A DNA stretch of 61,953 nucleotides, counting the filler. It is 12 parts of 12 records of this genome, joined end to end, with 100 filler letters (N's around TTAATTAATTAA, not from the genome) between each part and the next. Parts side by side here need not be neighbours in the genome. Positions count along the whole stretch, not along the records: positions 25,445 to 29,109 come from SRR7504441_63985; 11 more parts are not named here. The stretch is one strand, 5' to 3'. Every line of letters begins with the position of its first letter. Position 1 is the stretch's first letter. The translations under genes were made by a program, and so were the position numbers. Below, piece after piece: positions 5,249-54,819 of this stretch. The notes under the pieces were generated by a model. The model ran no database searches. It was not told the origin of the DNA and saw only the letters and a list, made by a program, of their open reading frames with translations.

Positions 5249-5348
5249 NNNNNNNNNNNNNNNNNNNNNNNNNNNNNNNNNNNNNNNNNNNNTTAATTAA
5301 TTAANNNNNNNNNNNNNNNNNNNNNNNNNNNNNNNNNNNNNNNNNNNN
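5249..5348. other. Artificial contig-joining linker (first of 11)
   Basis: 100-nt N-TTAATTAATTAA-N spacer with stops in all six frames. Others at 11151-11250, 14747-14846, 17896-17995, 25345-25444, 29110-29209, 33655-33754, 37586-37685, 41439-41538, 44698-44797 and 54716-54815. Confidence 0.98.
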
Positions 5349-10943: not shown

Positions 10944-11256
10944 TGTCTCGGCACTGATACAACTCCGAAGCGAGGCAACGCGAGGTTGGGTACCGCTTTG
11001 TCTTTAGTTTCGTTAGTTTTGTCTTGGTAGAAGTTTGTACACTTGCAGATCGCCATAGATGCTTGCATTGCGCCTACCTCAATGCATCTTCAAATTGAGT
11101 ATGAATACTCAGCCTATATAAATCAACCATGTAATAACTTGTCAGTGAAANNNNNNNNNNNNNNNNNNNNNNNNNNNNNNNNNNNNNNNNNNNNTTAATT
11201 AATTAANNNNNNNNNNNNNNNNNNNNNNNNNNNNNNNNNNNNNNNNNNNNGGTGAG

Positions 11257-12283: not shown

Positions 12284-14746
12284 TCAAAACTCAACGCCAT
12301 ACTTGGCCAAAGTCGCCGCGTACTCCGACTCATTGTACTTGGAATCGCTATCTGGTGCATCCTTGTTCCCATCATCACGCATAGCTGTTTCGCGTGTCCC
12401 GGGCTTGTTTAGTGAACAAGGGGCTGTTGGCATGCTCAGATTTAAACTCCCAATGCCGTGTTGAGGCAAAGAACTTGCATGACTAGTACCACGCGGCTGA
12501 CCACCTGGCCGGTTCATTCGTGGATCGCGATTAGCAGGCACCAAAGCGTGCCTCAGGCTCGGGCTGATGAAACTGCCAATGGCGCTCACATCAGTGCCTC
12601 TGGGGGCAGGTGGGGGCATGCTGGAAATAGGCAGCTTGCACCGCTGAGAAAGGGACGGTTTAGTTTCTATCTCAGCACTTGGTGCGCTTGGATCACTCTG
12701 AGAGCCGTTGGGGCCAAGAGCAATAATTTTGAACGAGTACTTTGAGCCTGGTTCGAGTCCAGAGACGGCGTGACAGGTAGCGCTGCTCTCAGAGTTTTGA
12801 CACTGTAACTGGAACGCTGACTCGTTTGAGCTGGATTTGCGCATCAGAATCTTATAACCTACTATCGGCTGCCCGCCTGCTGACGGCGGCTCCCAGGACA
12901 GGAACAGCTGAGTCTCGCCTTGCTGTGCCCCAGGCATCAACCGCGGGGCCGAAGGGCGCCTAGGTGGCGAGCTATCAGCGGTAAGCTCAGACGGGTCAAG
13001 CTTGGATGTGGGATGGAGCCGTTGCTTCGGTCGCTTCTGGAGTTGTGAGTTGACCTGTACGGTTCTTCGCGCCATCTGTGGCGGATTGGAGCTCTGCTTG
13101 ACCTCGAGTCTGGGTTTCTTGCTGCCCACGAGCGTTTTGTTCCTCTGGGACGAGCTGAGTGCATGCCGCGGAGCCGGGTCATTCGCGTCATCGTGCGAGT
13201 CTACAGGCAATGTCCGCTTGGCCGGGCGCTGCTTGCTGGCCGGAGCGGAGGGCGGCAGGAGAATGCACCGCCCGGCAGGGAGACTAGTGTGCAGTGTCAC
13301 GCTTAGAAACCGGTTGGCCTCAAGCAGCTGTTGACGGTCGAGCCCGAGGTTGTCAGCGATCTGCGCGAGCGTTTCGAGTCGGGGCAGCTTGTAAGCCTTT
13401 TGCTGTTCGCCTACGGACTGCGGAGCGGCTGGTCTCTGGGGCTCGCTTGCCTGCGAGATGGCTGCGACGGCTGGTTCGCGTGGCTTGCTCACAGGTTGCG
13501 ATGGTTGGACTGGAAGACTGCTGCGTTGCTTTCGGAACTGTATGAGCGCCGCACAGGTGCCCTGGCTGTTCTCGAGATTGCCAGCTGGCTCCCAGCTGGG
13601 CGTGCTGTAGCCCTCCCAGGCGACAAGGTACTCTAGCGAGCCACCGGGTGTTTGCCGCTGATCGTGAACGCTCTGCACAATGTACTCTTCCAGAGCAGCT
13701 GCTGGACAGCTCTGCGCCTCAGCAACGGCACTGCTGCTGCGGTGACTCTTGAGCATGGGCAGCCCGAGGTCATCGAGGCGCTGCTTGCGCTCGCGCGGCG
13801 CAGCTGCAGCACAGCTCAGAGCGGGGCCTGCCGAGGCACACACCATCTGCAGGCTTCGGGGCTCTGGTCTGGCTCGACTTGGCTGTGCGTTGCGGGGCTC
13901 TGGCGCCTCCGAGTCGTGCCTGTCCCAAAGGTTAACACTTTAGCGCCGGGCTGCGGCGGCTGCCTGGACCAGCGCAATGTTCCGTTCAGCTTCTTTTGCG
14001 GCCGCCTTTTCCTCAAGGTACTGCGCGGGTGGCTTGCCCATCCGTTGCTCAAAAGAACGCTCGAACCGCATGGCTTTGAGAACAGTCGCTAGTTTTGTGC
14101 TCTCGGGAGCGAGCCTGTAGTCCTGGCATTTGGCACTCAGCTTAGTCATCCCGTTGCCCCCTCCATACTCGCTGCTGCACAATTCTTTGGCTCTAGCCAT
14201 ATCTTCCTCGGACAGTTGCACATCTAAGAACTCCTTGCTGCTAAAAGCCAGCTCCGCTTCATCGACAGGCTCCTCCTCCCGTTTCAATTCCTCTGCTGGC
14301 GCGCTACCCTTGGCCCGGCTCCGTCGCTGCTTGGCCCGCTTGGGCGGTGCGAGCTCCGCCAACGAGCCCAGAGGATGTTGCGCCCAGTCGCCCGTGGCAA
14401 ACTCCCCGGATTGGCAGCTAGCCTTATGCGTACTCAGTGAGGCCTCGATCGTCTCCAGCTGCGAGATCGCTTCATCCACCAGCCCCGGCGGCCACGACAT
14501 CTTGGATTTGCCCGGAGAATCGCGGTAGGCCTCTATCGCAGCTACACAGCCAGCCCGCGATTCCGCCGTGTTGGGCTTGGCTGCGAAACTCTTGTGGCTG
14601 TACGTCTGTTCGGCCAGATAGACCAGCATCCCGTCCACGTCGGCTGGGTCCTTGTGTCCCACGTTGTGCAGCTGGACAGCCGGCCAGAAGACCCCGTCCG
14701 ATTGCTTGTTCTTGGCCTGGACAACCGGTCAGGCCAGGCCGTTCGC
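12284..14746 (-). CDS. Chromodomain + LysM + fibronectin type III protein (5' end near or beyond contig edge)
   Basis: Chromo EEYIVQSV...LEYLVAWEGYSTPSWEPAGNL, LysM ETLAQIADNLGLDRQQLLEAN, FN3 LSWEPPSAGGQPIVGY...GLEPGSKYSFKIIA. ORF 13940-14662 joins ORF 12284-13846 via a GC-AG and a GT-AG intron. Confidence 0.75.
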
Positions 14747-14854
14747 NNNNNNNNNNNNNNNNNNNNNNNNNNNNNNNNNNNNNNNNNNNNTTAATTAATT
14801 AANNNNNNNNNNNNNNNNNNNNNNNNNNNNNNNNNNNNNNNNNNNNTTGAGGGA

Positions 14855-15502: not shown

Positions 15503-15967
15503 TCACACCCGACGCGAGGAGCTGCCCGCCCTCATGAGGAGATCCGCCCATTCATATGTTACCCGTAGCCGTGTGGCCGCCGCCATCCGTTCCCTGTCGG
15601 CTGGCGTCGGTGAAGGAAGATGCGGCATGACGACCACGTAAAACAGCCAGCCAAACGCCTGGGCGAAGCCCCGGCCGAACAGCGGAGCCCGGTAGATCAC
15701 GGCCTGGCAGTCGAGGATGAAGCACATCCAGTTGCCCATCAAGAAGCTCAGGCTATAGTCCGAGCGGCCAGATGCCGCGAGCAGCGCGGCGGTGAGCAGT
15801 GCGAGGACACCGCTGCCGCACCGAATGTGAGTGAGTGGGCAGCGCGGCCACCTGCTCAGCGCGTACACAATCAGCAGAGCCAAACAGACCGGTGCGGCCA
15901 GCGGGAGCAGCACGATGCCCAACGCACCGAACGGGCGGCCCTTGCCGCGCAGGTGCCTGTCGCCCAT
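15503..15967 (-). CDS. Hypothetical small membrane protein
   Basis: ATG at 15967, several hydrophobic segments, and an in-frame 39-nt GT-AG intron matching the genome pattern. 3' end uncertain. Confidence 0.5.
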   Translation of the reverse strand: MGDRHLRGKGRPFGALGIVLLPLAAPVCLALLIVYALSRWPRCPLTHIRCGSGVLALLTAALLAASGRSDYSLSFLMGNWMCFILDCQAVIYRAPLFGRGFAQAFGWLFYVVVMPHLPSPTPADRERMAAATRLRVTYEWADLLMRAGSSSRRV

Positions 15968-16000
15968 CCTCAACCGCTCATTCCGTTGCCGGAGCCAGGG

Positions 16001-17895
16001 GTGCGATCACGTGCTCGCGAGGGCAAAGGCCCCAAGTTCTACGCGGTGCAGCGTGGCCGGCGGCCGGGGGTGTACGCCAGCTGGTCAGAGTGCGAGGCCC
16101 AGGTGAACGGCTTTCCGGGCGCTGTGCACAAGAGCTTCCCCACCCAGGCCGCTGCCGACGCCTTCGCCGCCCCGCCAGCTGACGCCCCAACAGTCGCCGC
16201 ACCGCCGGCAGCAGCGCCGCCGCGCCGGCTGCCCTTTGGCTGGGGCGCGGTACACCCGCAGCCCAGTCGGCGGCAGCCCAGCCCGGTCCGGAGCCCTGCT
16301 GCGACCCCTACCAGCCCGGCCGCCCGCCGGCTCCCGGCTAGTTGGGCCGCGCGCAGCCCGGGGCGCTCTCCGGGGCTGGCCGACACGCCCGAGCCACCGG
16401 AGGAGGAGCGAGTGGAGGTGGGGGATAGTCTGGAGGAGCTGACGGCCGGGGCCGAGCCGCCAGTCCCGGACACAGTGCGTGGACAGTTCCCGGAGAGGCT
16501 TCGTCGGGGGCTGATGCCGTTCCAGCGGCGGGGGGTGCAGTGGATGCTCCAGCACGGCGGCCGGGGGCTGATAGGGGACGACATGGGGCTGGGCAAGACC
16601 ATCCAGGCGATTGCGGTGTGCTGCCTGCTAAGGGACGACTGGCCGGTGCTGGTTGTGGTGCCCAACTGTATGCGGCTGGTCTGGGCCGACGAGCTAGAGA
16701 AGTGGGTCCCCGACCTGCCCCCGGGCGCGGTGAGTGTCCCGATGCACGGGCGGGACACTGGCTCGTTCACAGACCCGGGCGTGAGTTTCGTGGTTGTGAG
16801 CTATGGCCTGCTCACAAAGAGCACGCCAGTGGCCCAGGCGGCCCAGGCTGCCAAGTTCCAGGTGGTGGTGGCCGACGAGTCCCATTACATTAAGAACCGC
16901 CAGGCCCAGAGGACCAGGGCGGTGCTTGGATTGCTCGCAGCAGCCAGTCGCCGGGTGCTACTCACTGGCACGCCCGCGCTGGGCCGACCGTGCGAGCTGT
17001 TCACTCAAGTGGACGCGATATCCCCAGGGCTGCTCGGCTCCTGGAACGCGTACACCACCCAGTTCTGTGCGGCCTACCAGGCGGCGTGGGGTTGGGACGT
17101 GTCCGGGGCTTCAAATCTGCCGCAGCTGCACGGCCTGTTGAAGAAGGTGATGATCCGGAGGAAGAAGAGCCAGGTTCTCTCTCAGCTCCCGGCCAAGCGC
17201 CGGCAGCTGATCAATCTCGAGCTCACTCCCGGCCAACTGGACGAGCTTTGCCAGATTCGGTGCGCCGGGTGCGGAGCTCAGGCTGACGGTGGGCAGCACG
17301 AGGCTGGATGAGTGTGCTGATGACCAGCCGGCCGAAAAGTTTGCTGTGTTCAGCGAGTACCATACCGCCTCGTCCAAGGCCAAGCTGGGGCCGGTGGGCG
17401 AGTACGTGGCCGGGCTGATCGCCGGGCTGCCGCCGCGTGGTAAGATCATCCTGTTTGGACACCACCTCGTCATGCTCGACTGCCTGGCCCAGGCGGCCAC
17501 CAAGGCCAAGGTGACTCTCAAACGAGCTTACCACCTCACAGCCGGCAGGTCGGGTTCATCCGAATCGATGGCAGCACTGCGGCCGAGGCCCGCCGCGACA
17601 ACGTGGAGCGGTTCCAGTCCGACCCTTCGGTGAAGGTGGCTGTGCTCTCCATCCTGGCGGCTGGGGTCGGGATAACTCTCACTGCGGCCTCGCTGGTGGT
17701 CTTCGGCGAGATGCACTGGACCCCAGGCGTGCTCGAGCAGGCCGAGGACCGGGCGCACCGGATAGGGCAGCAGAGCGCGGTGCAGGTGCAGTACCTGTGT
17801 GCGCCGGGCTCGATTGACGACTTGATATGGCCCACGTTGAGCAAGAAGGTCACTGTGCTCTCGCAGGCGCTCGACGGGATGGACGAGTGGTACGG
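16001..17895 (+). CDS. SMARCAL1/ZRANB3-like SNF2 translocase with N-terminal RNase H1 hybrid-binding (caulimovirus viroplasmin-like) domain; 3' truncated, start unresolved
   Basis: KFYAVQRGRRPGVYASWSECEAQVNGFPGAVHKSF is in one uninterrupted frame with LMPFQ, GDDMGLGKTIQA, VADESHYIK, LTGTPAL and MIRRKKSQVLSQLPAKRRQ. After two introns come KIILFGHH, RIDGST and EQAEDRAHRIGQ. Confidence 0.88.
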
Positions 17896-18335
17896 NNNNN
17901 NNNNNNNNNNNNNNNNNNNNNNNNNNNNNNNNNNNNNNNTTAATTAATTAANNNNNNNNNNNNNNNNNNNNNNNNNNNNNNNNNNNNNNNNNNNNAATGG
18001 CATTTGTTTGGTTCGCGCAGCGCTGACGGAGTCCTCTGGGCAAGGCGACGTGAGTATCAACAAATTCATCGAGGCCGTGTCGAGTCATCAGCACGGCATC
18101 GAGAGGATCGAGTCGACGCTCAACCAGTTGTTGGTCAACCATCCGAACCTGCTGGCAACCCCGCAAACAAATGCCATTACGCCTAAAAATGGCAAGAAGA
18201 AGCCCATGAGCACTGTGTAAATCAAGAGCTTGTGAACCATCACCTGTGTTGCACTCTTAGCTGCACCTTTAAAATCTAATCCAAAGCACGGGCGGGTTAC
18301 CATTTCCATGGTACTCAAAAACGGCGAGGAAGCCG

Positions 18336-19079: not shown

Positions 19080-21509
19080 TTAATCATAGAGCGATGTGCG
19101 CTTACTAGCCTCAAGCTCAAACCTCTCTGGCTTCACGACAAGTAGTGTGATGATTGCAATAGCAGCATATGGTAAAAACAGCATCCACTTGAGAAGCTTG
19201 TAGAAGTGTACGTTGAATGATAGAGCATAGGAGTCTTCAAATACCTGACCGTGCTCGTTTCGCATGTTTACAACGACCATGCCAGAGCCACGGTACTCGG
19301 GGCTTGGTACCACTTCTGTATAAATGCCAGGCTTCGTGTACATCTTGGTCAGCAGTAACACAGACCCACCGATTGAAATTGTCACATTGTAGCTCCCATG
19401 ATACGAGGCCGCCATCGCCGCTGGGCGGCGGTCATGGATTTCGAACTGGACGACAAAAGAGCTCCCATGCACGTCTCGGTGAGTTCTCGAGCCTGCCAGG
19501 ACAAAGATGCTCTGCCATAGCTTGCTTGTGTGCATGGATGCGCCAAGCCCAACCGACGACCAACCGATCGTCGGGTGGAAGCGCCGCGACGTGCCAAACG
19601 CATACAGGTTGCCTGCCATGGTGCCGACGACAAGATCCAGCTGCCCATCGCCAGTGACATCCCCCGCAAGTACCATGCCATATGCCGATTCGCCAATGTC
19701 GACTCTATGCATACAAGATCCCTTGCCATCGATTACGTAGATGCCACCGTCAAAGCTCGGCACGACCAACTGCATCACACCACCGCCGCTGCTCCCATGC
19801 GGAGGCGGCTTGATCTGAGTCAGGAGAACTGGGGCAATCAGCTTGCCCTCAGTCTTAACTGGAAATCCCTCCAGCGGCTCGCCGGTCTTACCATGCAGTG
19901 CCCACACATGGCCGGCAGTGGTCGCTACTACGACATCAAGCACCCCATCCCCATTCACGTCGCCGATCGTGGCCCCCTGTGATGCAAATCCAGATATCCG
20001 ACGCGTCCAGTGCTGTCTGCCTGAGCCAGCAAAACAGACAACATTCCCTGAGGCATCTGCTGCTATCAGGTCGAGTGCACCATCTGCAGTGACATCCTCC
20101 ACCGCCACGGACCCCTGGATCTCGCCGATCTGAAGAGGAAACCCGGAGTGTGTCTTGCCATCCTCATCCAGCACGTATATGAAACCTACAGAGGTGCCCA
20201 CCACCACATCAAGCCTGCCGTCACCGTCAACGTCAGCAGCAGTTGGAGTAGTATAGATGTAGGCTCTAAGCATTGTTGTGTCAGTAGTCAGGTCCAGATG
20301 CTGGCTCCACTTGACAGTCTTGGTGTCCAATTGAAACACCACCACGCCCCCTGCCACATACTTGGATACCTGCACGTCTGGTGGAATCGGCGCACGAGTC
20401 CCGTCGTCCCCTAGCTCTTCCCTATCAAAATAGTAGCTCACCGACACGATCAGCTCCGGCCGGCCGTCATTGTCCAAGTCCGCAATCGTTGGAGTGGCCA
20501 TGATGTGTCCGTCCACCAGCACGTGCTCATCATCGTCCTCGCCACGTGCATGCAGCTTGGCCAAGTGCTCCAAGTACTCTGGCGCTCTGAGCGGGTCCAT
20601 CTGCTGCTGTGCAGCGGTCTCGTGCTCCAGCTCACTCAACTGCGCCTCGGGCGGCCGGAGCAGGTCGAGCGAGGCCATCCCAGCCTTGGTGAGGGTACCA
20701 CCCCACGCGCCCTGTACCGGGCCTTGCTTCTTTGGGTCGATCTTCACGTAGTCTTCACGCTGTGCCTGCACGCTCAGCAACCGGCGTGTGGTGTGCTCCT
20801 CGTCCAGGCCCACGTACCACTTCTTCCTCACCACCAGGGGCGGCACCTGCCTCTGCAGTCACACCCAACCCGCGTGCCTGCACCTTGAGAGTCCACCCGA
20901 CCAGCGGTATGCCTGTCTCTCGCAAGAACACGATCTCGCCGTCGTTTGTGGCCACGACTACTTCGCGCACCCCATCTCGGTCGACGTCGTACAGCAGCGG
21001 GGAGGCGTGGAACGAGGACTTGCTGAATGTGAACGGCCAGCCAGCGGCGGTGTGCCCATTCTCGCCCTCAGTGACCTCGATGTAGCTGGCACACCGGGTC
21101 AGAACCGCTCACCCCTGGGCCCGACCGAGTAAAGCTGGCGCTCAGCACCTCGGCCGATCCGTCGGCGTGCAGGTCCGCGATCACCGGCGTCGAGTAGAGG
21201 CCGGACCCAGCCTGCCGCCGGCTGGCCGCCAGTCTGACTCGGCCGGACCTCGGACATCCAGCGGAGCCGGAGGTCCATCTCGCAGCCAGCGGAGCCGTTT
21301 CCGTGCCGAGCCCCGAAGATCACCTGGTCCGGCTCGGACGCGGCCGCGGGCGGCGGGCGCACGTCCTCGATGGCGAGCGGACTGCTCTCGCGGTACGGAT
21401 TGGGGTCCAGGTCGGCGTCCTTGGCCACCGGGTTGGACAGCTGGCCTGCCGCAGGGCCGACGGCTAGCACAACCAGCAGGCCCGATAGAAGCTGGCCGTG
21501 GCGGTGCAT
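19080..21509 (-). CDS. DEX1: DEX1-like FG-GAP/VCBS repeat beta-propeller type I membrane protein
   Basis: Signal peptide MHRHGQLLSGLLVVLAV, repeated DxxGDGxLD motifs, VDGHIMATPTIADL, VSVSYYFD, KYVAGGVVVF, RAYIYTTPT, and C-terminal TM HFYKLLKWMLFLP. Short introns in the 5' part. Confidence 0.85.
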
Positions 21510-22708: not shown

Positions 22709-22903
22709 GTCGGGTGCCGTGCGAGTTCATTCGCCAGGAGCACGTGATGTGTGCTCGACGGGAGTTCGGCTTCCCGCCAAATTTTTGTTGCCAGTGCTCG
22801 CACGCGGGGCACGGGCGCACGGTGCGTCCCTCGCCGCTCAGAGTACCAGTCCGGGGGTTGGCGAGCAAATCAGCCGGACGGGCAGCGGGGCACTGAGCGG
22901 ACG

Positions 22904-25000
22904 ATGGGCTCCAAGCGTAAGTCGTCCACCACCACCCTGTTGCTCTCGCGGGTCCGGTCACACGCGGCGCACCACGACGTGAGCGACCCGCAGGCTGTGG
23001 CCGATCAGCTGCGGGCGATCTACCCAGACTACACCCGGCTGCCGCGGAACGTGTTTGTGGCCAACGTGCAGAGGGCGATCCAGCAGTACACTGTGGCGAT
23101 GGTGCCTCCGGCTGACCCGCCAGCAGCCCAGGAGGAGGAGGAGCAGGACGACGGCCCGGAGCTCGAAGCCAACCATCAGGAGTTGGGCGGCAACGCAATG
23201 AACGCGGCGGTCAGGCAGATGTACCAACCTAAGCCTCAGGAGCGCCGGCCCGAGGAGACTGCTGACCGCAGGCCCAAGCGCAAGGCGCCGGCTGGCCCAG
23301 CAGGCGAGGCCAAGCGGGCCCGGGCGGCCAGCCAGCGGCCCACTGCGCGGTATGCAGACCTGGGCGGGATGGACAGCTGCCTCCAGGAGGTGCGTGAGTT
23401 GATCGAGTACCCGCTCAGGCACCCTGAGATCTACCTGCACCTCGGTGTGGACCCGCCGCGCGGTATTCTGCTGCACGGCCCACCTGGCTGCGGCAAGACG
23501 CTGCTGGCCAACGCGGTTGCAGGCGAGATCGGCGTGCCCTTCCTCAGGGTGTCGGCCCCTGAGCTGGTCTCCGGCATGTCGGGGGAGTCCGAGAAACAAG
23601 TCCGTGAACTGTTTGAATCGGCTGCTGCGTCGGCGCCTGCAATTGTTTTTATAGACGAGATCGACGCTGTGGCCCCCAAGCGCGAGACCGCCCAGAAGGA
23701 CATGGAGCGGCGGATCGTGGCTCAGATGCTCACCTGCATGGACGATTTGAGCTTAGAGAAGACCAACAACCAGCCTGTTTTAGTGATCGGAGCTACCAAC
23801 CGGCCCGATGCGCTCGACGCTGCCCTCAGGCGGGCCGGCCGGTTCGATAGAGAGATTTCGATCGGGATACCCAACGGAGAGTCGCGCGCCCGGATCATGA
23901 AGGTGATCACGAGCAAGATCCGGCTCAGCGGTGACTTTGATTTCGACCAAATAGCCAGCATGACGCCCGGATTCGTGGGAGCTGACCTTAGTGCGCTCGC
24001 AAAGGAGGCGGCCGTGCTGGCAGTTAACCGGATATTCGCCGAGATCTTGCCCTCCGGCCCTGCCACTGGGCAGGACGAGCCCCAGAGCGCCCCAACGGCG
24101 CTGGCCAACTGGCAGGAGCCATTCTCGCAGGAGCAGTTGGCGCCTCTCTCAATCACGATGGCGGACTTTGAGCTGGCTGTTACCAAGGTGCAGCCTTCCT
24201 CCAAGCGGGAAGGTTTCACCACCGTACCGGACGTGACCTGGTCAGCGATTGGTGCGCTGGATGCAGTGCGGGCTGAGCTGGATATGACCATCTGCCAGCC
24301 GATTCGTAACCCGGATCGGTTCAAGCGGCTAGGGATCTCGAGTCCGGCCGGGGTGCTGCTGTACGGCCCACCCGGCTGCGGCAAGACCTTGGTGGCTAAG
24401 GCCGTGGCCAACGAGTCTGGGGCCAATTTCATCTCAGTCAAGGGGCCGGAGTTGCTTAATAAGTACGTCGGCGAGAGTGAGCGCGCTGTGAGGCAGCTTT
24501 TCTCGCGGGCGCAGGCCTCTGCCCCGTGCATCGTGTTCTTTGATGAGATGGATGCGCTGTGTCCCAACCGCGGCTCAGACTCGAATCAGGCGACTGAGAG
24601 GGTGGTGAACCAGCTTCTGACAGAGCTGGACGGAATTCACACACGCGAGCAAGTCTTTGTAGTGGCGGCCACCAACAGGCCGGAGCTAATAGACTCAGCA
24701 ATGAAGCGGCCGGGGCGTCTCGACAAGCTGCTCGAGGTCGGGCTCCCCGACTGCGATGGAAGGGTGTCGATCCTCAAGGCTGTCGCTCGCAAAACTCCAA
24801 TTACTGACAAGGTGGACTTAGCTGCTGTGGCCGCCGATCCCCGCTGCAACGGCTTCTCAGGCGCCGATCTGGCTGCTCTGGTCCGCGAAGCGGCAATATG
24901 CGCATTGCGCGCCGGGGCTGAGGGAGCGGTGGCGCCGGAGCATTTCGAGTCAGCACTCGGCGTAATGAAAGCTTCGGTCGGCCGCAAGTTTGCCTATTGA
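22904..25000 (+). CDS. NVL: Nuclear VCP-like type II AAA+ ATPase (Rix7/NVL2), intronless
   Basis: Two AAA modules (GPPGCGKT twice, FIDEID, FFDEMD), [18 protein letters not shown] and an NVL-type N-terminal YPDYTR motif. Confidence 0.93.
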
Positions 25001-25793
25001 CGAGCTATTGACGAGCAATGATTAAAGACATTTATTATTTTACGTGCTCGTCTGCATTGAACATTCGTACGAGTAGCAGCAACGCATGCATCACGCAGTT
25101 TACACGCAGTTCTGAGTTGAAGAGGCTGTGGACAAGTGACTGTGCTATTGATATCCACTGGCATCGAATGCAAATTTTGGTTGTAAATTTTGTATATAAA
25201 GAAATATATAGTCTAGCCTTTGCAGACCTTTGCCTTATGTAGACCTTTGGGACCTTGGCAACTGACATTTTCGTAGACCTTTAATTAATTAACCGTTTTA
25301 TATCCCGGGCGCGCGGGCGCTTCTTTCTATTATTATTTAGTAACNNNNNNNNNNNNNNNNNNNNNNNNNNNNNNNNNNNNNNNNNNNNTTAATTAATTAA
25401 NNNNNNNNNNNNNNNNNNNNNNNNNNNNNNNNNNNNNNNNNNNNGGGCTCGGCGACTGCGGCGGGCTCGGCGGCTGGAGGTTCGCCGGTGATGAGCCCAA
25501 TTCGCTGCTCGCCGGCTGCGGCACCAGTCAGCACTGCCCCAGGGTTGGCTCGCCTGCCAAGATCCTGGCCTTTCTCCGTTCTCGCGCGGTGGCCATTGAT
25601 GCCGGTTGATGCTACTTTAGATTGATGGTACTACCTACCAACACATCAGAGCGCCGTCGCCTCCCCAACCCACCCGGCAAGCCAGAGTGTCCTGATAGCT
25701 TGTCCAGACAGAGGCTGATTCCGGCCTCCAACGGAAAAAAACGGCACCGCCGCCCCACAAGCACGGTCACAGTGGCCACTACTAGTGCGTACA

Positions 25794-28700
25794 ATGCGCA
25801 GTTCGCTGGGTGGCTACCTTGGTGACGCCGACCGGCGGGGGGGCGGCCATGCTGTGCTACCGGCAGCGGTGCAGAGCCAGTTGCTATCGGTGTGGCAGCA
25901 CCTGGACTGGGACGCCGACGGTGCGCTGCAGACCGAGGAGCTGGTCCGTTGGTTCAGCGACACCAGCCTGCTCACCGCTGGTATAGACACCAACCAAGAC
26001 AGCGCGCTGAGTCTGCCCGAGTTCGCCGGCTGGCTGGCTGGGCTGGTCGCCGAGTCCGGGCCTGGCGCGGTCAAAGACTTGCTGGGCCTGATCCACGGCC
26101 GGTGCCCGATGCTTGGGGAGCAGGCCGAGGCTGGTCCGGAGGGCGTAGAGGCATACGGAGAGGAGCGGGCGGTCGAAGCGCTCCGGCTGCTGCCTCTGGA
26201 GTGCACGCCTGGCTGGATGCTGACGGACAGCCAGCCGGGGCACTTTGAGTTGTGGCGGGGGCTATCGCAGCTGCCTGAACTGCCCGTGACGGTCACACTG
26301 TGCGGGCTTATCTGTGACGCGGTGCTGGCGGCGGAGACTGCAGTGAGGGCTGGGGCGACCGGCTGGGAGGATGGTTGGACCGGGGAGTATGACGATCAGT
26401 TGGTGCTAGCGCTCCAGTGGGCTGCGGGTATTATTCTGCTGGTTAATCCCGTTGATTGCTGACTGATCTGGGCAGGTCAAGCAGAGGCAGGACTGGCGCC
26501 ACTCACCCTCCCGGTGACCCTCCGGACCGCCAGCGGGGTTGTGACCGGCTCCAGGATTTGCCTTGCCCGGATGCACACTGGCTGTTCCGGTGGGCTGGGT
26601 TCGCGCCGCTACCGGACGGGAGTTGGGTGAGTCGGATGCCTGTCCCTGGCCAGATCCACGGGGCTGTCAAGTGGGTCAGCCAGGCCCTCCACACTAGCAC
26701 GCCTCTTGCCAGCCAGCCGCGGCCCGGGCGTCCTATTGAGTCAGACCTAATCAATCTCCTCGTGGACGCGGCCTCCAGATACGTCCTCCCGGCGCTCAGC
26801 TCCACCGAGGCCGAGCCAGTCCGCAAGGCCGTCTCACTCAAAGTGTGGGGCTTTCTGACAGCGTTCGAGGGCCCCGGGGAACCGTGGCGATGGGCCGCTT
26901 ACGACATGTGGGCTGAGTCCTGTGATGACGAGGCGGCTGACCAGCTGCTCAGCAGAGCGCTCGAGCCAGGCACTTCTCCGGAGGAGGTGTTGGATACACC
27001 GTGGCCGGGTCAGCTTGGGCTGATCACTCGGCTATTTGCACAGGCGCGCTATCTAACACCCAGCCCAGGCTGATCACTAACCCCAGCCCCTAACTCCTAC
27101 TATTTTGCACAGATTGGCTGTTGTTGTTAATCACGCTGATCATGTGACTGCAGGCTGACCAGTCCGAGCCGGCCAGTAGACTCCTTGCCCTGGCGGCCCA
27201 GTCGGCGCCTGGGAGGGACCTGGTCGAGTACGCTGCAGCTCGGGCTGGCGTGGCTCCACCAGGCTCGGATCGGCCGGCAGAGCCTGTCCAGACCGAGGCT
27301 CGGAGCATGCCGACTGAGCTGCTCCGGACCAGCAGACCTGCCCTGGTAGCCGCCTCGCGAGCCTCAGTGTTGATCGACTTGCCCGCAGGACGCTGACGGC
27401 GACGGGCGGGTGAGTGCAGGGGAGCTAGGAGGGGCATTCGTGGAACAGATGAAGCGGGCCGGGCGGGATGCTGGGTTCGCCCAGTGGGATGTGGACGGTG
27501 ATGGTGTGTTGGATGAGGCGGAGATGGCGCGAGCGGCGGCCGCGGGGGTCTCAGTGGCCGGTGCGGATGCGGACGGCGACATGAGAGTCACGCACGATGA
27601 GTGGCAGCGTTACGTGGAGGATGACTTGGATGCGGATGAGATACTTGTGCTAGACGTGGGTTCGTACGCAGTTAAAGTTGCCCCGACTGGTGACGGGGAA
27701 GTGGCGGCAGTCTGGCCGTATGTAGGTAAACCGCACAATAAAAAGCTGATGCTCGGACACAACGACAAGCAGCTGTTCATAGGGAGCCAGGCGCACCAGA
27801 TGCGAGCCGTGTGCAAGCTAGAGAGCCCGGCCGCCGCTGCCAACGGCTCAGCCAGTCCAGCTCAATTCCAATCATCTCAGGTCGATGTTCTCTGGAGACA
27901 TCTGTTTGAGCAGTTCCTGCCCAGATTCGGTCAGGCTGATCGTTGGGATGGATGCACCGGGCTGATGCTGTCTCAAGACATGGGCGCCTCGGTCAGGGGC
28001 CAAGGGATGGTGCTCGAGGCGATGCTCGAAGAGTTTGAACCTCCCAGAGTGGCGCTTCATCGGGCGCCGGTGCTCGCATTCTACTCCTCAGGACGGACCA
28101 CCGGAGTGGGCTGTCACATGGGACACTCGTACACCGACATAATCAACGGTGCCCAATTGACTAGAGATGCAGTGTAATTGTGCAAGTACTATTATCAGCA
28201 GCCAGGGTTGACGGCTGGCTGGTCTCAGTTTATGACGGCGCTCTCTTAGCATTCAACAGCTTCCGCTCGCAGGTGAGGCTTAGCTGCCAGCTCCCGGCTT
28301 GGCTTCACGCGTGCGGGCAGCTGGCCGGAAACACATTAACAAACTATATGGCCCGCTTGCTCCCGCTTGCTGCATCAACGTCTGGCAAGGTCGGCCAGCC
28401 TGCAAGCCCTGCCGAGCCTAGACCAGGTGCTGCCGTGGGATAGAGAAGACTATGCTAATCAGATCGAAGCGATCAAAGCCTTCTCGATCTCGTTTGCTGA
28501 GCCCGGCGACGGGGCTCTTTTTGACCTCCCAGATGGCGAACAGGTGCAGCTGGGGGACATTGGCAGGCAGTGTGCCGAGCTGTTCTTTGATCCTGCTCCT
28601 GTCAACGAGGAACCTGACATGGCGCTGCATCGGCTGCTCCATAGCTGCATTCAGGACAACGACCTGGACCTGCGCAGTCAAATGTATCGCAACGTGGTGC

Positions 28701-29026
28701 TGTCGGGCGGCTGTGCGATGGCTAATGGGCTCGATGCGAGGCTGACAACTGAGCTGGAGCAGCTTCAGCCGTCGTCTGTCAAGATTGTCAACAACTGTTG
28801 CCCGATGCAGTGGCAGCCGAGCAAGCACGCTCCAGTGGAGAATACCTGCAGGCAAGTCACCCTCCTCGCAGCCTGCTTGCCGATAGACTGACGGTGGTTT
28901 AATTGAAGGTCGGTAATTGACGGAGGAAAGATCTTTGGAGGTCTGTCGACATCGAGTGGCTGGATCACGAAGCAGATGTTGAACGAGCAAGGCGCAACCC
29001 GCTTGATTCAATCATTTTGTCCATAA
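25794..29026 (+). CDS. Multi-EF-hand protein fused to a divergent actin-fold domain
   Basis: About five EF-hand loops, then VLDVGSYAVK, VLAFYSSGRTTG, FDLPDG, AELFFDP and NVVLSGG. In-frame splicing links the segments (e.g. introns 27044-27153 GC-AG and 27346-27388). Confidence 0.75.
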
Positions 29027-29544
29027 GTTGCTTGTTACCGACGTGACTTGGGCTCGACCTAGGCTCGACCTGAGGGGGATGCCAAACAAAAGAAGGACAA
29101 TGGACCTTGNNNNNNNNNNNNNNNNNNNNNNNNNNNNNNNNNNNNNNNNNNNNTTAATTAATTAANNNNNNNNNNNNNNNNNNNNNNNNNNNNNNNNNNN
29201 NNNNNNNNNGGGTTTTCTAACATTTAATTTTTATCTATGTATCATGGTCTATACATAATTATACATGATTGTACAGTACTAACAGTTAACTAACAATAGT
29301 CTCGTGTTCAGTGACGATAATTATGCATATGCATAATGATCCATGGCGTTGCTTCATGTACTCGTAATGTACTCGTATAATTATGCACCATTCTGGACAT
29401 TCCGATTCCTCTGGAGTGAGTGAGCATCGTGAGCATCCTTGAGAATATAAGTGCGCGCTCAAAGTTGCGCATGAGTCGGTGCCAAACTGTGGCCGTGGTA
29501 AGTCTCTACAGTAACTAAAGTCTAATATGGTAATTTTAGGCGAA

Positions 29545-32500
29545 TTACCCGACTCCAGTCTTTTGACCAAAGATGCGTAGGTCGTCTTCATCTGATGAAT
29601 CCTCCTCGAACTGCGACATGAACGGCCGCTTCTTCACCAACACAGGCTCTGCCACCGGCTCGCCCAGGAGGATTCCAGCGTCGCCCCGATCCACACTGCC
29701 ACAGCGTCAACATGCATGTCAGGGGAAAGTTACTTACTTGAAGGCAGTGCCCTTTTTCGCTTCTTCTTCGTCTTCCTTGCAGCAGCACTGTTGCAGCATG
29801 AGATCAACCAGGCGCAGCGGCGCAATCTCACCCGAATGATGAAAATGATGATGATCAGGAGAAGAATACCACCTACAACAGCTGCAGCAATGATCTGCAA
29901 AACACATTGCTCATTCAACAGGCCCACAGCAAGTACGTACGATCCATATGTTGAGACTGTCGCTGCTGTCGCCGCTGTCGCTGCCGGTCTCGCATGCCCC
30001 AGTACACGGGTTGCACTGCAGCAGCTGCGACGAATCCGCTCCATTGCAACTCTCGTCGCACTCGATGTATTGTGGGCAGTCTACATATCCAGCGACGTGC
30101 TGGAGGTAAAAGTACGGATTCGAACTCCGGCGTGCTGAGGTGCTCATGACGTACTGAGGCTCGTTGTTAGCGGTGCTCAGGTAGCTGATTGAATTGGCCT
30201 TGAGAACAGATGAGTCTGCACATGTGCCTCCAGCCAGCACCACGCCCAGCACTGTTTGGCCGCCATTGCTGCTTGCCCACAGACCTGTCACTTCCACTTG
30301 CGCCGCGCATGCCGCCTTGACTCCCAGGAGCTGGACGAGCTCGGCTTCAACTGCTGTCGCCACTGTGGCCACCGAAGAAGAGACAGAGGTGAAGAGTAGT
30401 GCGAGGTAAATCTGGATGGCCACCTTTGTGACATCGGTTCCAGAGGCCCTGCTGACTTCGAACCTGTAGTTCGTAATCTGGCAGGTTGAATCCGTGTCAG
30501 TGCAGGGGGTATCACAGGATGTTCCCGAGGTACACTGTGCGGCTGTCGTGCCTAGTTGGAGGTTTGCTGGATGCAAGGAAGTCACGGTAAATGTAACCAG
30601 GCTGGTCCCAGTAGCCAGGGTGGGTGTGGTTTTTGCAGCGGCCGAAGTCACATCTTCCGTAGCTAGCGTTGTTGCTCCGCTGACGGCCCACTTCATAGAT
30701 GATGGCGTTGCCGCGTTAATACTCGAAGCCTGGGGCGTCAAGGTTGGCGTGAACGTCAATGTTGACACACTCGCTTCAACAAGAATCTTGTAGTTGAATG
30801 ATGCCGGCGAAAACGTGGCTGGCCCCATTGTTGCGATGGCGGTGCCTCCTGCATCTGTGATCGGCATTGTTGCGATGGTGGAAAAGCGATTCACAGCGCC
30901 ACAGACCTGTGCGCACGCAAGCCTTATCATCCGCCTACTAGCAAGTGGCGAATCGCACCTGCTGGTCACTTGGATTTGGGCAGGTGAGTTCCCCACTGAA
31001 GGCTAAGAGGGTCTGTGCACCGGCACCAGTGCAAAGCACTGGGAAAAACAGATTTTCAGCTTGCTTGACAAAAACCAAAAGCTGTGTAGTGGACAAGCAG
31101 AACGACTTGTAGCACCTGCAAGCGTCAACTCACTAAGCATGCCGTAGGTGAGCCGGAGCTGCTCACATTGCGTTCCTTGACGCTTGTGAGCTCGACTTCG
31201 AGATCAGCGTACTGGACAACGCCATGGAGTAGAGCCCGCTGGCATAGCTTGTTGTGCCCAGTGTGTCTGTGAATTGCAGGGCCTCACCAAACTCTCCACC
31301 AGACTCCTCGGTGGGCCAGTTGGTTGCATGTGACGATTCAGAGCAGACCGCATTGGCGTATGGCTGCCAAATCCACAGTGAACCAGGACAGGCAGGGGAA
31401 AGGGGGCACCAGGACTATCGGGCAGTAGTCGGGCCAGTAGTCTCCCCCTAGCAACAGCAGAGTAAGCACAGACAACTGCCCGTACACAGCACCTGAGATC
31501 GACGAGGATGCGGTGCCTGGGCCCAGATATAACCATGCATCCGTAGGCAGGGTACCAGTGTAGGCATCCGTCGTGCAATACCTAATAACGACAGGCTCAG
31601 CGCACCGCACCGCATACTCCTAGCCGCCAGAGTGTACCCCAGTGCGCCGTGGTTGCTTGCAGGAGCGAGATTGGCACTTCCTCCGTCAGTATCAGTGCAG
31701 AAGAACGCTGCGTTAGCTGAAGCGCCGGCAGCAGTCTTGGTGCCGCTGTTGCATTTGTTTGTAACGCCACCGTCGCACCTGCACCAGTTGTGAATAGCCG
31801 AGCCAGGGGTACAATACGCACGTTGCACCGCCCAACCAGGTGTAAGTAGATTCGATCTGGTCAACCGCTGCGGAGCAGGTCCAGGTGCTGGTCCCGCTGG
31901 TAATTGTTTTAGGGGCATCCCATGTGAAAGTGGTGGTGGGCGTCCAGCTGTTGTCTACACACATGGCGCCCCCCGTCTCACTCGTACAAGCCTCCGTCTC
32001 ATAATCGGCATCATTGCCAGGATTCCGCTTTGGGTCACACAAGAAGACTATGCTGGCCAGATCGTAGTTTGTCTCGCGCACTTTCCACCACCCCATGAAT
32101 TCGAGCATCCCCAGAGTCATCTTCGAAGTGGGGTGGTCAGCCACGCTTCCGCTGATGACCGCAGTCATCAACTCATCGCCAAACGTCCGCGCCTCCCAGT
32201 GGCTGTATGCACTGCCTTGGATGCCCTGCTGCTCAATCTTGACGCCAGGTGTGGCCAGCACGGCATCGGCAGTACCGTCTGCGGGACCGAGAGAAGTGCA
32301 GCCATAATGCGTCTCGGCCTGCGTCACAATTTCGCTCTCCAGCGCCGCTCGAGTACCACCAGTCCCTGTAGGGACTCCAACGAACTGGTAGGTGTCGTAT
32401 CCGAGAGTGGTGTCGGTCTGCTTGTTGAAATAGCAGGGGCTCGGCACGTAGTATGACACCGTTGTAGCTGCAGGTGTGAGAGTAGTGGTCCCACCATACT

Positions 32501-33654
32501 GGGTCAGGGGGTACTGGAAAGTCTGCGCACCACCACCTGTAGCCGCCGAGCATATCTGTGTGCATGCGGATCCGAAGTACGAGGATGCAGCTGTAACCGC
32601 CAGGGTGCAGTCCGGAAGATTGCCGGTGCGCATGGTGCGCGGGAGCCAGGGCCGGGGTGTATCCGTATTAGCACCGCCATTCCGGAACCAGGCATAATAT
32701 TGCAAGCTCATTCCGAGAGCATGCATCATTTCGTGGCGCACTGCGGCCACACACACACACTGCTCAGAGCGGCTCGGGGCTAATCGATTCACTTGTTGCA
32801 ATCATGAGTCGATGGGACTTGTCTGTAGTCAAAGGGGCTGTTGGGATGTGCAGGGAACAGAAGTGGATACAGCCTGCCCACCGCAACCTTAACCCGGCCG
32901 GCCGACCGGGCGGGTGCCACCGATGACAGGGCGATTGCAATTGTTCATTTCGAGGGGATTAGCGTATGCGATAGTATCGACATTGGCTTGGCACGTAGCA
33001 GAATTGGTCGCCGCGTAGTAAAGCAGGTAGTTGATAGACTTGCCAGCTCCCTGTTCCGCGGCCGGCGTAGCAAAAGTGCTCCCCTCGCAGGCTCCACTGG
33101 TCTGGAGTCCAGTTGTAGCAGGTGTGATACCTTCAGTACCGGCTATGTCTTGTGTCTGTCAGAAGATCAAAAGGTCTGGGGTCGAGGGCGGACCGATATC
33201 GTCATCTCGTACCACTTGAGGACAGAAGGCACCACTATCTCTGCCCGCCAATGGCTCAGGACCTGACGGCCGCGAGCGGCGTACGATGCATATACGTTAT
33301 CTGTGCTGAGCTCAGAGCGGCCCCTCCTGCGCCAGTCATCGCTCCCATCTGGTAGCCAATCTTCAGGGCCGTATCCGTATCAGCTCCCCATTGAGCAGCA
33401 TTGCCACAAGCTCCAGGATCAGTTGTTCCAGTTCCGTCGTTCGCGATGCCGGTGTCGCGGCGGTTAGAGCGGCGGGTAGAGTTGTGGTTCCCTCGGTTGA
33501 AGATCACCTCGGGCTTGGCGATCTGACCGCCGGTCGACAGACGTTTCGCCGGGCCCGGGGCACCTTGTCGTGGATGCAGACGTGCTTCTTGCCGTCGACA
33601 CCGACGTGCTCGTGCTCGTGCTCATGGTGGTGGTGGTGGTGGTGGTGGTGGTGC
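29545..33654 (-). CDS. Leishmanolysin-like (M8) zinc metalloprotease with Cys-rich/Ig-like stalk and C-terminal TM (5' truncated)
   Basis: His-rich start with CIHD propeptide motif, HEMMHALG, SHWEARTFGDELMT and MTLGMLEFMGW. A cadherin-like beta-sandwich (FSPASFNY) precedes TM IIAAAVVGGILLLIIIIFII. Exon joins only partly resolved. Confidence 0.8.
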
Positions 33655-33988
33655 NNNNNNNNNNNNNNNNNNNNNNNNNNNNNNNNNNNNNNNNNNNNTT
33701 AATTAATTAANNNNNNNNNNNNNNNNNNNNNNNNNNNNNNNNNNNNNNNNNNNNGAGAGAGCCAGCTTTGCTCTACTCATTACAAAATGGATTCAGCGTG
33801 GTCGATTTACGGATTTAGTCATATAGACATCCCTCCTAAGCATGAATCCTAACACTCGATCTAGGCACCCTGGTGCACGCACGACAAGTTCCTGTAATTA
33901 CTTTTCAAGGGTGCATCCGCGGTACATGCAGACAAAATCTGGTGTGAAATCCTGGGCCGAGAGCTACTAGATCTTCTTCATCAATACC

Positions 33989-37368: not shown

Positions 37369-37685
37369 CTGGCTACGTCTGTCCAGGTATCCTAGATCTA
37401 CCGGTACCTCCTCTTGGAACCGGCAACGGAATCGGGGCATCTCTCTTTTTTTTTACGAAAACATTAGTTTAATTTCAAAGACTAAACTAGTAAGCACGGA
37501 CTAAAGAAACGGCTTATTTCCGGTATCCCCCTATCTATCTATCTATCTTGTTGGGTTTCGGAGTGGCGAGTTTAAGCGATTAGTTNNNNNNNNNNNNNNN
37601 NNNNNNNNNNNNNNNNNNNNNNNNNNNNNTTAATTAATTAANNNNNNNNNNNNNNNNNNNNNNNNNNNNNNNNNNNNNNNNNNNN

Positions 37686-41184: not shown

Positions 41185-41596
41185 GTTAACAGTGAGTAGT
41201 GGACCGAGCGCTGTGAGCTTCAATGTCAGATTAATTAAGTACGGAAAGAGAGAGATGTACGTGTACACGCTTTTGGATGAAGTATTCAGTAAACATTAGA
41301 TTAGGACTTCCATCTTTTAACACATCATATACAAGCCATTTACTGGCGCGGTTAGATAGACTACTGTTAAGAGGTAGTAGTTAGCTATGGTGGGTTGAGA
41401 TTTGAGAAGGCGAGTTGAGGGGGGTAGAGATGGATTTTNNNNNNNNNNNNNNNNNNNNNNNNNNNNNNNNNNNNNNNNNNNNTTAATTAATTAANNNNNN
41501 NNNNNNNNNNNNNNNNNNNNNNNNNNNNNNNNNNNNNNGAAAAGTGTCAAGCGGCTGAGCGAGGAGGCGTTCGTCCTCTGCCCACGAGCTAAGTAA

Positions 41597-42503: not shown

Positions 42504-44697
42504 ATGAGGGCTCTTCTACTCTGTGCTGCAGCAGCAGCCGCGCTCGCCAGCAGCGCGGACTCGTGGCACGAGAGCACCGCCATTGAGCCCCTCGGGGACG
42601 AGCTAGGGGGCAACTCCGCGACCGAGGTGCCTCAACCCCCGTGCGGCCCGCTATCCCTGGCCTGCCTGCACTTTGGGGCTGATCGTGCCGTCGCAGATAC
42701 CTCACGACTCCAAGCGCGCCGCCTGGCTCCACAAGAAGCTGGACGAAGTGCGCTCCAAGTGCAAGACACCGCTTGAAAAGATCAGCAACTTCACGGTGAG
42801 ATCCGCCTCCTCCGGGCTGCAGCTCTCTCGTCCGGCCGCCAATCGACCCTAGTTGGCACCGGGCGCCGGCCGCTGATACGAGGCCGTCTGTCGGCAGGTG
42901 GGCAGGACCACCAAGCAAACTGTCGAGGGCACCGAATACCGCGCCACAGTGAGCGCAGGTGCATCCCCCAGCTATCGGCCCGATCTGACGACACGTCTGT
43001 GGATCGCAGACGGTGTCGACAGGAACATCACATTCGTCCGTTCGCTTCCGAACGAGCAGCAGATCCACCACTTCACCAAGGGCAAGGGGGCGGGCGACGT
43101 CAAGGACCTTTTTCACCTCAAGGCTATCCATCCACACCCATGCGGTGCCGACACAGCAGTCCTATCAGAGGAGAGCGAGGAAACAGACGCCGAGCTCGCC
43201 GCCAAGTATAAGACCGGGCTGGTCATGCCGGAGCGGCTGGAGTATGCCGACGTGACCGTGAGTGCGGAGGAGCTCGCAAGACTGCCAACCGACTTTGACT
43301 GGCGCGACGAGATCCAGAGGCGGTACGGGGAGGCGGCTAAGGCTGCGACGGCGCTCAATCAGGGCTCGTGCGGCTCGTGCTGGGCGTTCGGGGCTGCCAC
43401 TGCGGCTGGCTACAGATCGGTGATTGAGTCGGAGGGGCACTACAATGTGGTGCCTTCGACTCAGGTGGGTATGAGCTGCGCCAAGCCTCCGCCAGGCAAT
43501 CCATGCGGCGGCGGGTGGTTTAATAACTTCTACGACGCCATGAAGGACCACGATGTCCCTGCCAACTGGGCTGTACCCTACACTCAGGAGGGCGGCGATT
43601 GCGTTGTGTCCTCTGACTCGATTCCCATCAAGGGTGGCACATCGCCGAGTATTAGAGGCGTGGACGCTATGATGGTCGAACTACACAATAACGGACCCTT
43701 CGGCTTAGCGATTGATGCGAACCAGTGCTTTCAGCGCTACAGAAGTGGTGTTGCTGATTGCACAGGCGGCCGCGTCACACATGCCGTAGTGGCAGTGGGC
43801 TTTGGCACCGAAAATGGCAAACCCTACTGGCTAGTCCAAAACTCGTGGGGTGCTGGCTGGGGCGACAATGGTTTTATCAAGGTCGCTCGAGGGAACAATG
43901 CCCTGAATATGGAGCATGCCGGAGCTCAACCAAACTACATCTCCGAAGAGAGCATGGCCTGCCGGAACCAGCCAGCCTGCAAGAATGGTGAGCCGCCCTT
44001 CCCCAGGCCGCGGTGCTGGTAGCTGACAGGCGGCTGTCTGTCGACAGGCGGTGCCTTCAAGAAGGACTGCTCCTGCAACTGCCGCTCGGGTTATTCTGGT
44101 CCGACGTGCGATTCTTGCGAGAAGAGCTGCAGTGGCAACCAGTTCACAGGCCAAGCCGCAATCACTGCCGGGAAATGTGCATGCAAGTGCAAGGCTGGGT
44201 ACATCAGTCCGGCCAACCTGCTTGGGTACTCGGATTGTGCGCTGCAGATGCAAGTAGGCAGCTCCTCCTCTTCTATGGTGAGTGTGGCCCGCAACGCCCA
44301 AGTGAGCGTGGCCTACTCTGTTGTGGGCAGTGCCCCTTCTGATCCGATCCAGAACGTTAAGAAAGGCGACATGCTTGTGGCTGTCGCAGCTGGAACCGCA
44401 CCGTGGACTGCCGAGGGCGGGTGGACAACTGACATCAAGGCCGACGTGTGTGGGCCCAAGGCTTGGCCGGCTGAGGTATGTGCCTCCAGCACACCCAAGC
44501 TAACATTCAGCAACGACGGCGTGTATGAGGTCTTCTTCGTCAAGTACCTGGGCAAGTCCGAGTTTGGAACAGACAAGGGATACGGCAGCGACTTCATGGC
44601 TCTACCCCAGCGAATCTGTGTGGGGAGCGCCGACTGCGATGCTGGATCCGGATCGGGCTCTGGATCCGGCTCGGGCTCTGGATCTGGCTCGGGCTCT
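42504..44697 (+). CDS. Secreted papain-family (C1A) cysteine protease with EGF-like and C-terminal extension (3' truncated)
   Basis: Signal peptide MRALLLCAAAAALASS, LPTDFDWR, NQGSCGSCWAF, THAVVAVGFG and YWLVQNSWG. Cys-rich EGF-like segment, then a (GS)n linker at the contig end. Confidence 0.88.
44644..44697 (+). repeat. Gly-Ser coding tandem repeat
   Basis: GGNTCN hexamer array at the contig end; probable cause of the assembly break. Confidence 0.8.
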
Positions 44698-54715: not shown

Positions 54716-54819
54716 NNNNNNNNNNNNNNNNNNNNNNNNNNNNNNNNNNNNNNNNNNNNTTAATTAATTAANNNNNNNNNNNNNNNNNNNNNNNNNNNNN
54801 NNNNNNNNNNNNNNNGAAC

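Follow-up and report, generated by a model that had tools for sequence, protein, structure and literature searches.

Most of a 3,665-base piece (positions 25445-29109) of the 61,953-base window, the whole stretch of DNA analysed here, is filled by a plus-strand gene whose predicted protein carries EF-hands and a complete, divergent actin fold on one chain. Taking the reading as a whole, we consider it moderately probable that this EF-hand/actin locus is one intact multi-exon eukaryotic gene, and that it encodes a three-part protein serving as a scaffold or capping subunit of the actin-related protein (Arp) or actin-like kind. The favoured model has eight exons with ~2.7 kb of coding sequence and yields 899 residues with a calculated isoelectric point of 4.6 (acidic); the predicted length lies between ~875 and 899 residues and is set by where intron 1 ends. 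It begins at the ATG at 25794-25796 and stops at the TAA at 29024-29026, both as given in the original prediction, an earlier annotation of this locus made from the letters alone.

That annotation had placed EF-hands directly ahead of a complete, divergent actin fold, and this claim is borne out by an uninterrupted open reading frame (ORF), by Pfam, by end-to-end alignment and by fold prediction. The ORF at 27374-28177 gives one translation containing hits to both Pfam EF-hand_1 (E 4.7e-9) and Pfam Actin (E 5.2e-10). From the fifth EF loop to the first actin strand there is a 12-residue acidic link that resembles the N-terminal tail of actin, and the fusion point would therefore be the original actin N-terminus. 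EF loops do share an exon with the start of the actin fold, as had been described, but that exon holds three of them (loops 3-5) and not the two that had been counted.

Gene model and EF-hand module

The gene model was built from splice phase, homology and codon statistics, with GT..AG phase checks made junction by junction. Codon scores came from a log-likelihood table, for which seven Pfam-supported ORFs on other pieces of the window were the training set; by this table, the plus strand is coding at 25794-26427, ~26525-26986 and 27154-27345. The predicted exons are as follows.

25794..26427, plus strand: exon 1, residues 1-211; start codon and EF loops 1-2, then a region without a family (codon score 0.219 bits/codon, the level of in-frame coding sequence)
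26487..26986, plus strand: exon 2, residues ~212-378; Trp- and Pro-rich, no known family (codon score 0.157, positive from ~26525)
27154..27345, plus strand: exon 3, residues 379-442; Ala/Pro/Arg-rich linker holding the sole alternative start codon, 27307 (codon score and splice phase)
27389..28148, plus strand: exon 4, residues 443-695; EF loops 3-5, then the N-terminal half of actin unbroken from ~27623 (single ORF, Pfam)
28229..28272, plus strand: exon 5, residues ~696-710; the strand and helix of actin that follow phosphate loop 2 (the pair 28149/28228 restores the actin register)
28321..28389, plus strand: exon 6, residues 711-733; conserved LAG segment of actin subdomain 4 (continuous actin alignment)
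28427..28809, plus strand: exon 7, residues 734-860; subdomains 4 and 3 of actin, including the adenosine loop and an altered hydrophobic plug (Pfam Actin, E 1e-17)
28909..29026, plus strand: exon 8, residues 861-899 and the TAA; C-terminal actin helices (the pair 28810/28908 is in register with references)

The frame of exon 1 is open from 25719, and its earliest ATG is the one at 25794. The 5′ boundary of exon 2 is uncertain, with several in-phase acceptors available to intron 1, for example after 26475, 26486 and 26554. A frame-0 exon at 26476-26626, which would use the obvious acceptor after 26475, was rejected for its codon score of -0.088 per codon. Exon 2 gave no match in Pfam, in the PDB or in a homologue search run in the close-relative word-index mode only.

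How the upstream exons connect to the actin part decides whether the locus holds one gene or two. EF loop 3 opens with the first codon that follows the sole usable acceptor of exon 4 (27388), ahead of any Met in that exon. Exon 4 is therefore not a first exon and has to be joined by splicing to coding sequence further upstream. The junction from exon 3 to exon 4 is served by a single phase-compatible GT..AG pair, 27346/27388. The coding sequence that supplies loop 3 could in principle belong to a second gene on the same strand, such that an EF-hand protein would end at the in-frame stop at 27071-27073 and a ~470-residue actin-like protein with three EF loops would start from the Met at 27307. 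This arrangement, which we regard as improbable, would leave a genuine EF-actin fusion, with three loops in place of five. It draws on the frame of exon 2, which, without splicing at the 26987 donor, reads on to the stop at 27071, and on the one Met of exon 3, which stands 13 codons ahead of the donor. The 51 codons of exon 3 that lie 5′ of this Met are, however, coding-like at 0.214 bits/codon, a score equalled by 3 of 499 stop-free wrong-frame windows, and exon 3 is therefore read as an internal exon and not as a first one. Two genes would also have to fit a 3′ end, an intergenic spacer and a promoter into only 234 bases, and a phase-compatible GT..AG pair (26987/27153) links exon 2 to exon 3. 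Together, the codon scores upstream and the splice argument for exon 4 favour one gene of eight exons. On this evidence the upstream exons are coding, and are predicted to add two EF loops and a ~370-residue region without a family.

Downstream, exons 4-8 join to give 457 residues, the last 379 of which form the actin domain. The end-to-end match of these spliced 379 residues to actin supports the four introns of the actin part, including the 48-base, in-frame intron ahead of exon 6 (28273-28320). Alternative pairs for the last intron were rejected; they keep extra residues but delete the conserved C-terminal strand of actin.

All five EF loops named in the original prediction are present in the predicted coding frames, at the following positions.

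25905-25940, plus strand: EF loop 1 (EF pattern)
25986-26021, plus strand: EF loop 2 (EF pattern)
27389-27424, plus strand: EF loop 3 (EF pattern, Pfam)
27488-27523, plus strand: EF loop 4 (EF pattern, Pfam)
27566-27601, plus strand: EF loop 5 (EF pattern; no separate Pfam report)

A loose EF-loop pattern run over the six-frame translation of the whole window returned eight matches, of which five lie in this gene, two in an ORF at 3493-4719 that Pfam confirms as an EF-hand protein, and one elsewhere. With matches distributed in this way, the EF cluster is not a product of chance. Loops 3-4 score above the Pfam cut-offs for three families (EF-hand_1, 35.6 bits vs 25.4, the E 4.7e-9 given above; EF-hand_5, 31.2 vs 25.9; EF-hand_6, 30.2 vs 25), and they align with the C-lobe pair of calmodulin (E 1.7e-4). 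The loops of exon 1 find their best solved-structure match, a weak one (E 0.016), in the EF pair of a CDPK. In each of the five loops the ligands at positions 1, 3 and 5 are acidic or polar, position 8 is hydrophobic and position 12 is Glu; Gly occupies position 6 of loops 1, 3 and 4, and Ser that of loop 2. From these canonical residues, the protein may reasonably be predicted to be Ca2+-responsive.

The second EF-hand gene, at 3493-4719 on the plus strand of another piece, matches Pfam EF-hand_7 (E 8.8e-10) and has canonical loops at 3865 and 3988. A tblastn comparison of the N-terminal 442 residues of the EF-hand/actin protein with this gene gave no match even at E <=10, and these residues have no paralogue within the window.

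The actin domain and its nucleotide site

Pfam Actin (PF00022) is matched at 38.9 bits in exon 4 and 64.3 bits in exon 7 against a cut-off of 27, and the profile positions covered, 5-156 and then 252-359, are colinear across the two exons. Residues 7-378/379 of the spliced domain align with the full-length actin-family protein P0031 (E 2.5e-41, 28% identity), and 104 of 151 compared proteins match the spliced domain at E <=1e-5. Identity to the vertebrate alpha-cardiac actin domain is 29.5% (107 of 363 aligned positions), and the best identity to any match is ~30%. Insertions and deletions relative to actin are small: there is a six-residue insertion in subdomain 2, the D-loop is of normal length, and large insertions of the Arp type are absent. 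Among solved structures the best sequence matches are conventional actins, for both the N-terminal half (E 2.7e-11) and the C-terminal half (E 4e-15), with apicomplexan actins on top. For exon 7 the best solved-structure matches are actins and Arp1 (E 4e-15 to 7e-14), and Arp1 comes close for the C-terminal half only. Eukaryotic actins are usually more than ~70% identical to one another, and at ~29% the domain does not reach the identity level of a conventional actin.

Three-dimensional structure was predicted with AlphaFold2 for the two large exon pieces, modelled separately and not as the spliced chain. The original prediction had staked itself on this step, a non-actin fold counting against it, and AlphaFold2 with Foldseek returned actin for both pieces. 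In the actin part of exon 4 the predicted local distance difference test score (pLDDT) is mostly 82-94, falling to 66-75 in places, and Foldseek ranks actins as its best matches (E 3.9e-8, probability 1.00). Exon 7 has a mean pLDDT of 77.8, and its best Foldseek matches are again actins (probability 1.00, root-mean-square deviation 1.7-1.9 over 97-98 columns).

In order to place the domain, relatives were sought with HMMER among 1.84 billion representative proteins, a library that includes broad eukaryote transcriptome sets. This search returned 264 matches at E <=0.001 and none at E <=1e-30, and hence no orthologue. A quick tree was then built from 59 rows, comprising the query and the 58 matches that cover at least 330 query residues; the other 46 of the 104 matches were excluded. 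The end branch of the query is the longest in the tree (2.88 vs a median of 0.61). It falls in no supported clade of this tree, the rows of which are mostly unnamed and include no named Arp2-11 references. The query keeps 41 of the 54 columns that are >=85% conserved in the 58 homologues, the lowest count of the 59 sequences (the next lowest being 43). Named best matches are described just as "actin" or "actin-related protein", and the most divergent come from scattered protist transcriptome sets. Given the long unplaced branch, the low conservation and the unspecific best matches, the domain is therefore an orphan actin-like protein. It is a lineage-specific orphan, ~29% identical to conventional actin.

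The nucleotide loops that had been described as altered were located in the predicted exons at 27653-27676, 28115-28138 and 28700-28720, and the hydrophobic plug is altered as well.

27653-27676, plus strand: phosphate loop 1 (exon 4)
28115-28138, plus strand: phosphate loop 2 (exon 4)
28598-28618, plus strand: altered hydrophobic plug (exon 7)
28700-28720, plus strand: adenosine loop (exon 7)

With residues numbered after vertebrate actin in the alignment, D11, G13, S14, K18, G156, E214, G301 and G302 are kept. Eleven positions are replaced: G15->Y, H73->A, Q137->A, D154->H, D157->H, G158->S, H161->D, K213->I, T303->C, K336->M and Y337->Q. These include Q137, H161, D154, G15, G158 and K213, which we take to be catalytic or nucleotide-site residues of conventional actin; K213 is Lys in 55 of the 58 homologues. 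Other positions in the phosphate and adenosine loops are retained. At the position of the hydrophobic plug there is instead an acidic, Pro-containing stretch.

Divergence of this degree could mean decay, in that an actin paralogue recently took up EF-hand exons and the resulting chimera is now drifting without function. The longest branch of the tree, a count of conserved columns lower than in any other of the 59 sequences, the replaced catalytic residues and the failure to find an orthologue are all features that a decaying chimera would have. We nevertheless judge decay unlikely. Across the eight exons ~2.7 kb of coding sequence stays open, the actin domain contains neither a stop nor a frameshift, and codon usage fits the coding pattern of the genome in every large exon. 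Moreover, 41 of 54 family-conserved positions are kept, the five EF loops have their canonical ligand positions, and the predicted fold is intact.

A true calcium-gated polymerising isoform, able to bind and hydrolyse ATP and to form filaments or join them, is very unlikely. In its favour are the normal actin length without Arp-type insertions, the retained length of the D-loop, the kept residues D11, G13, S14, K18, G156, E214 and G301/G302, and the conventional actins that are the nearest solved structures by sequence. On the other side, Q137, H161, D154 and K213 are replaced, the last at a site where nearly all homologues keep Lys, the plug has become acidic and Pro-containing, and identity is only ~29%. 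The replaced catalytic residues and the altered plug argue against an ordinary ATP-hydrolysing, filament-forming actin.

An assembly artefact that joined a fragment of an EF-hand gene to a fragment of an actin-like gene, as a short piece (3,665 bases) of a fragmented assembly might suggest, is scarcely credible, since the junction would fall in a seamless ORF, within the 12-residue acidic link that resembles an actin N-terminal tail, and codon usage is uniform across it.

Relatives, known fusions and neighbouring genes

The same architecture was looked for in proteins, metagenomes and the literature. Among 53 actin-type proteins chosen from the 150 matches listed, none has an EF loop adjoining the actin domain, in a screen that was not a systematic domain-architecture search; two of the 53 contain one loose, misplaced EF pattern match each. 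Ten matches with N-terminal extensions all have Pfam Actin (10/10), and none has Pfam EF-hand (0/10). With the exon that carries both the EF loops and the start of actin as query, a metagenome scan gave 105 pattern matches, none of them confirmed, a word-index search for longer homologues returned only a single EF-hand repeat protein, and the protein atlas gave no usable match. The word-index search with the C-terminal actin exon found no longer homologue. Full-text literature searches, which did not extend to supplementary files, turned up no EF-hand-actin fusion. The original prediction held that EF-hands are absent from conventional actins and Arps, and the proteins and literature examined, the coverage of which is incomplete, are in agreement. 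Relative to this material, the combination of EF-hands with an actin fold appears to be new; orphan actin-like proteins with N-terminal extensions are already known.

Three of the matches have additional sequence on the actin chain. P0179 is an 852-residue protein from a stramenopile transcriptome set, in which a ~480-residue N-terminal extension precedes the actin domain; P0152 and P0153 have ~1,130 residues each, and in both a von Willebrand A domain comes after the actin domain. All three lack an EF loop and Pfam EF-hand, and their identity to the query, 27-28%, is confined to the actin part. The extension of P0179 has a weak RelA/SpoT-like match. Fusions of an actin fold with other modules do occur in protists.

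Among described proteins, filactin of Dictyostelium is close in layout, and its N-terminal extension reportedly consists of filamin-type repeats, not EF-hands. Like filactin, the protein described here has a C-terminal actin domain after several hundred residues of other sequence on one polypeptide. The actin domain of filactin has very high homology to conventional actin (PMC2441452), unlike the one described here, which is ~29% identical. In its actin domain the protein resembles the actin-like proteins (ALPs) of apicomplexans, which are lineage- or organism-specific, share ~20-27% identity with actin and fall outside the Arp clades (PMC1334187). It resembles them as a divergent actin-family member on a long unplaced branch; it differs in that no EF-hand or calcium module turned up for ALPs in the part of PMC1334187 examined, in which no search was aimed at EF-hands.

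Alpha-actinin and plastin/fimbrin are EF-hand-regulated actin-binding proteins. In EFhd2/swiprosin, EF-hands reportedly link calcium to the actin cytoskeleton (PMC5156911). In proteins of this group the EF-hands are fused to actin-binding or bundling domains, whereas here they are fused to the actin fold itself. A further analogy is with CDPKs, in the sense that an EF-hand module and the domain under its presumed control share one chain; the effector is an actin fold and not a kinase, and no autoinhibitory junction was identified.

The window consists of 12 short pieces joined by 11 identical 100-base linkers, each made of 44 N, a six-frame stop (TTAATTAATTAA) and another 44 N.

5249-5348, linker
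11151-11250, linker
14747-14846, linker
17896-17995, linker
25345-25444, linker
29110-29209, linker
33655-33754, linker
37586-37685, linker
41439-41538, linker
44698-44797, linker
54716-54815, linker

A twelfth copy of TTAATTAATTAA, at 25281-25292, has no flanking N and looks like native AT-rich sequence. The EF-hand/actin gene sits on its own piece, and because the pieces are joined by linkers, in an order that need not mirror the genome, neighbouring genes provide no evidence from synteny or context.

The remaining pieces carry ordinary eukaryotic genes (an NVL-type AAA ATPase, an SNF2 helicase, a papain-type protease, a leishmanolysin-like protein and an EF-hand protein). The first is an intronless ORF of ~700-750 residues at 22748-25000 (plus strand) that encodes a nuclear AAA ATPase of the NVL/Rix7 type, with two AAA domains and a nucleolin-binding domain; the protein atlas puts it in eukaryotic NVL clusters, with no finer lineage. 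A single ORF at 15614-17311 (plus strand) combines an RNase H1 N-terminal (Cauli_VI) domain with an SNF2-related helicase domain, an unusual pairing. An ORF of 363 residues at 29911-31002 (minus strand) is rich in Ser, Thr and Ala, has Cys-rich ends and no Pfam match, and may encode a surface or wall protein. A search of the whole window against Rfam found no family. Five further Pfam-supported ORFs are given here, with strands and coordinates in order of listing.

19080-20858, minus strand: DEX1-like protein with FG-GAP repeats and a beta-sandwich (Pfam)
12284-13939, minus strand: fibronectin type III protein (Pfam)
31713-32801, minus strand: leishmanolysin (M8) fragment (Pfam)
42877-44022, plus strand: papain-family protease (Pfam)
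54872-55942, plus strand: ACT_7 domain protein (Pfam)

Possible calcium control of an actin fold

Several observations weigh against the reading of the locus as one intact gene for a calcium-responsive scaffold or capping subunit. In the gene model, all splice junctions are predicted, the place where intron 1 ends is ambiguous, and the 37-base intron after exon 6 is the weakest point. In the EF-hand module, loops 1-2 fall under the Pfam cut-off (18.8 bits, E 0.0011), loop 5 has Met in place of Gly at position 6, the spacers between loops 1 and 2 and between loops 4 and 5 are 14-15 residues long, shorter than in classical EF pairs, and AlphaFold2 models the EF region with low confidence (pLDDT 46-75). 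No orthologue was found that would show conservation and purifying selection. Each of the nucleotide-site substitutions is also found in a few of the 58 homologues, and since they recur in other divergent members of the family, loss of nucleotide binding is not proven. Finally, binding of calcium and of ATP, like any influence on actin filaments, is putative.

The predicted protein would read, from its N-terminus, as an EF loop pair, ~370 residues without a family, three EF loops, the 12-residue acidic link and the 379-residue actin fold. The N-terminus of actin lies on the outer face of subdomain 1, and the EF module would be placed there. Calcium binding would open the EF-hands, and the opened EF-hands would alter partner binding, or free an intramolecular contact with the Trp-rich middle region. 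Such control would act in cis, by analogy with the calmodulin-like domains that are fused to kinases in CDPKs. Given its degenerate catalytic residues, the actin fold would most likely be a scaffold or a capping-type subunit, and we infer that the protein works like an Arp or actin-like subunit of this kind rather than like a dynamic, ATP-hydrolysing filament former. The suggestion that it serves contractile or feeding structures found no support and is speculation. More specific, and doubtful in our estimation, is the possibility of a self-contained calcium switch, in which the EF module would directly gate capping, nucleation or filament joining by the actin-like domain.

Actin-family proteins are normally controlled by separate calcium-sensing partners. 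If the switch were real, it would be a calcium-controlled actin-family element on one polypeptide, without separate regulators of the troponin, gelsolin or alpha-actinin type, and an actin fold with its own EF-hands would represent a new wiring of calcium to the cytoskeleton. The protein would also add to the cases in which protists reshape the actin fold by fusing it to other domains, and may provide a compact test case for whether an N-terminal calcium sensor can alter the binding or assembly of an actin fold.

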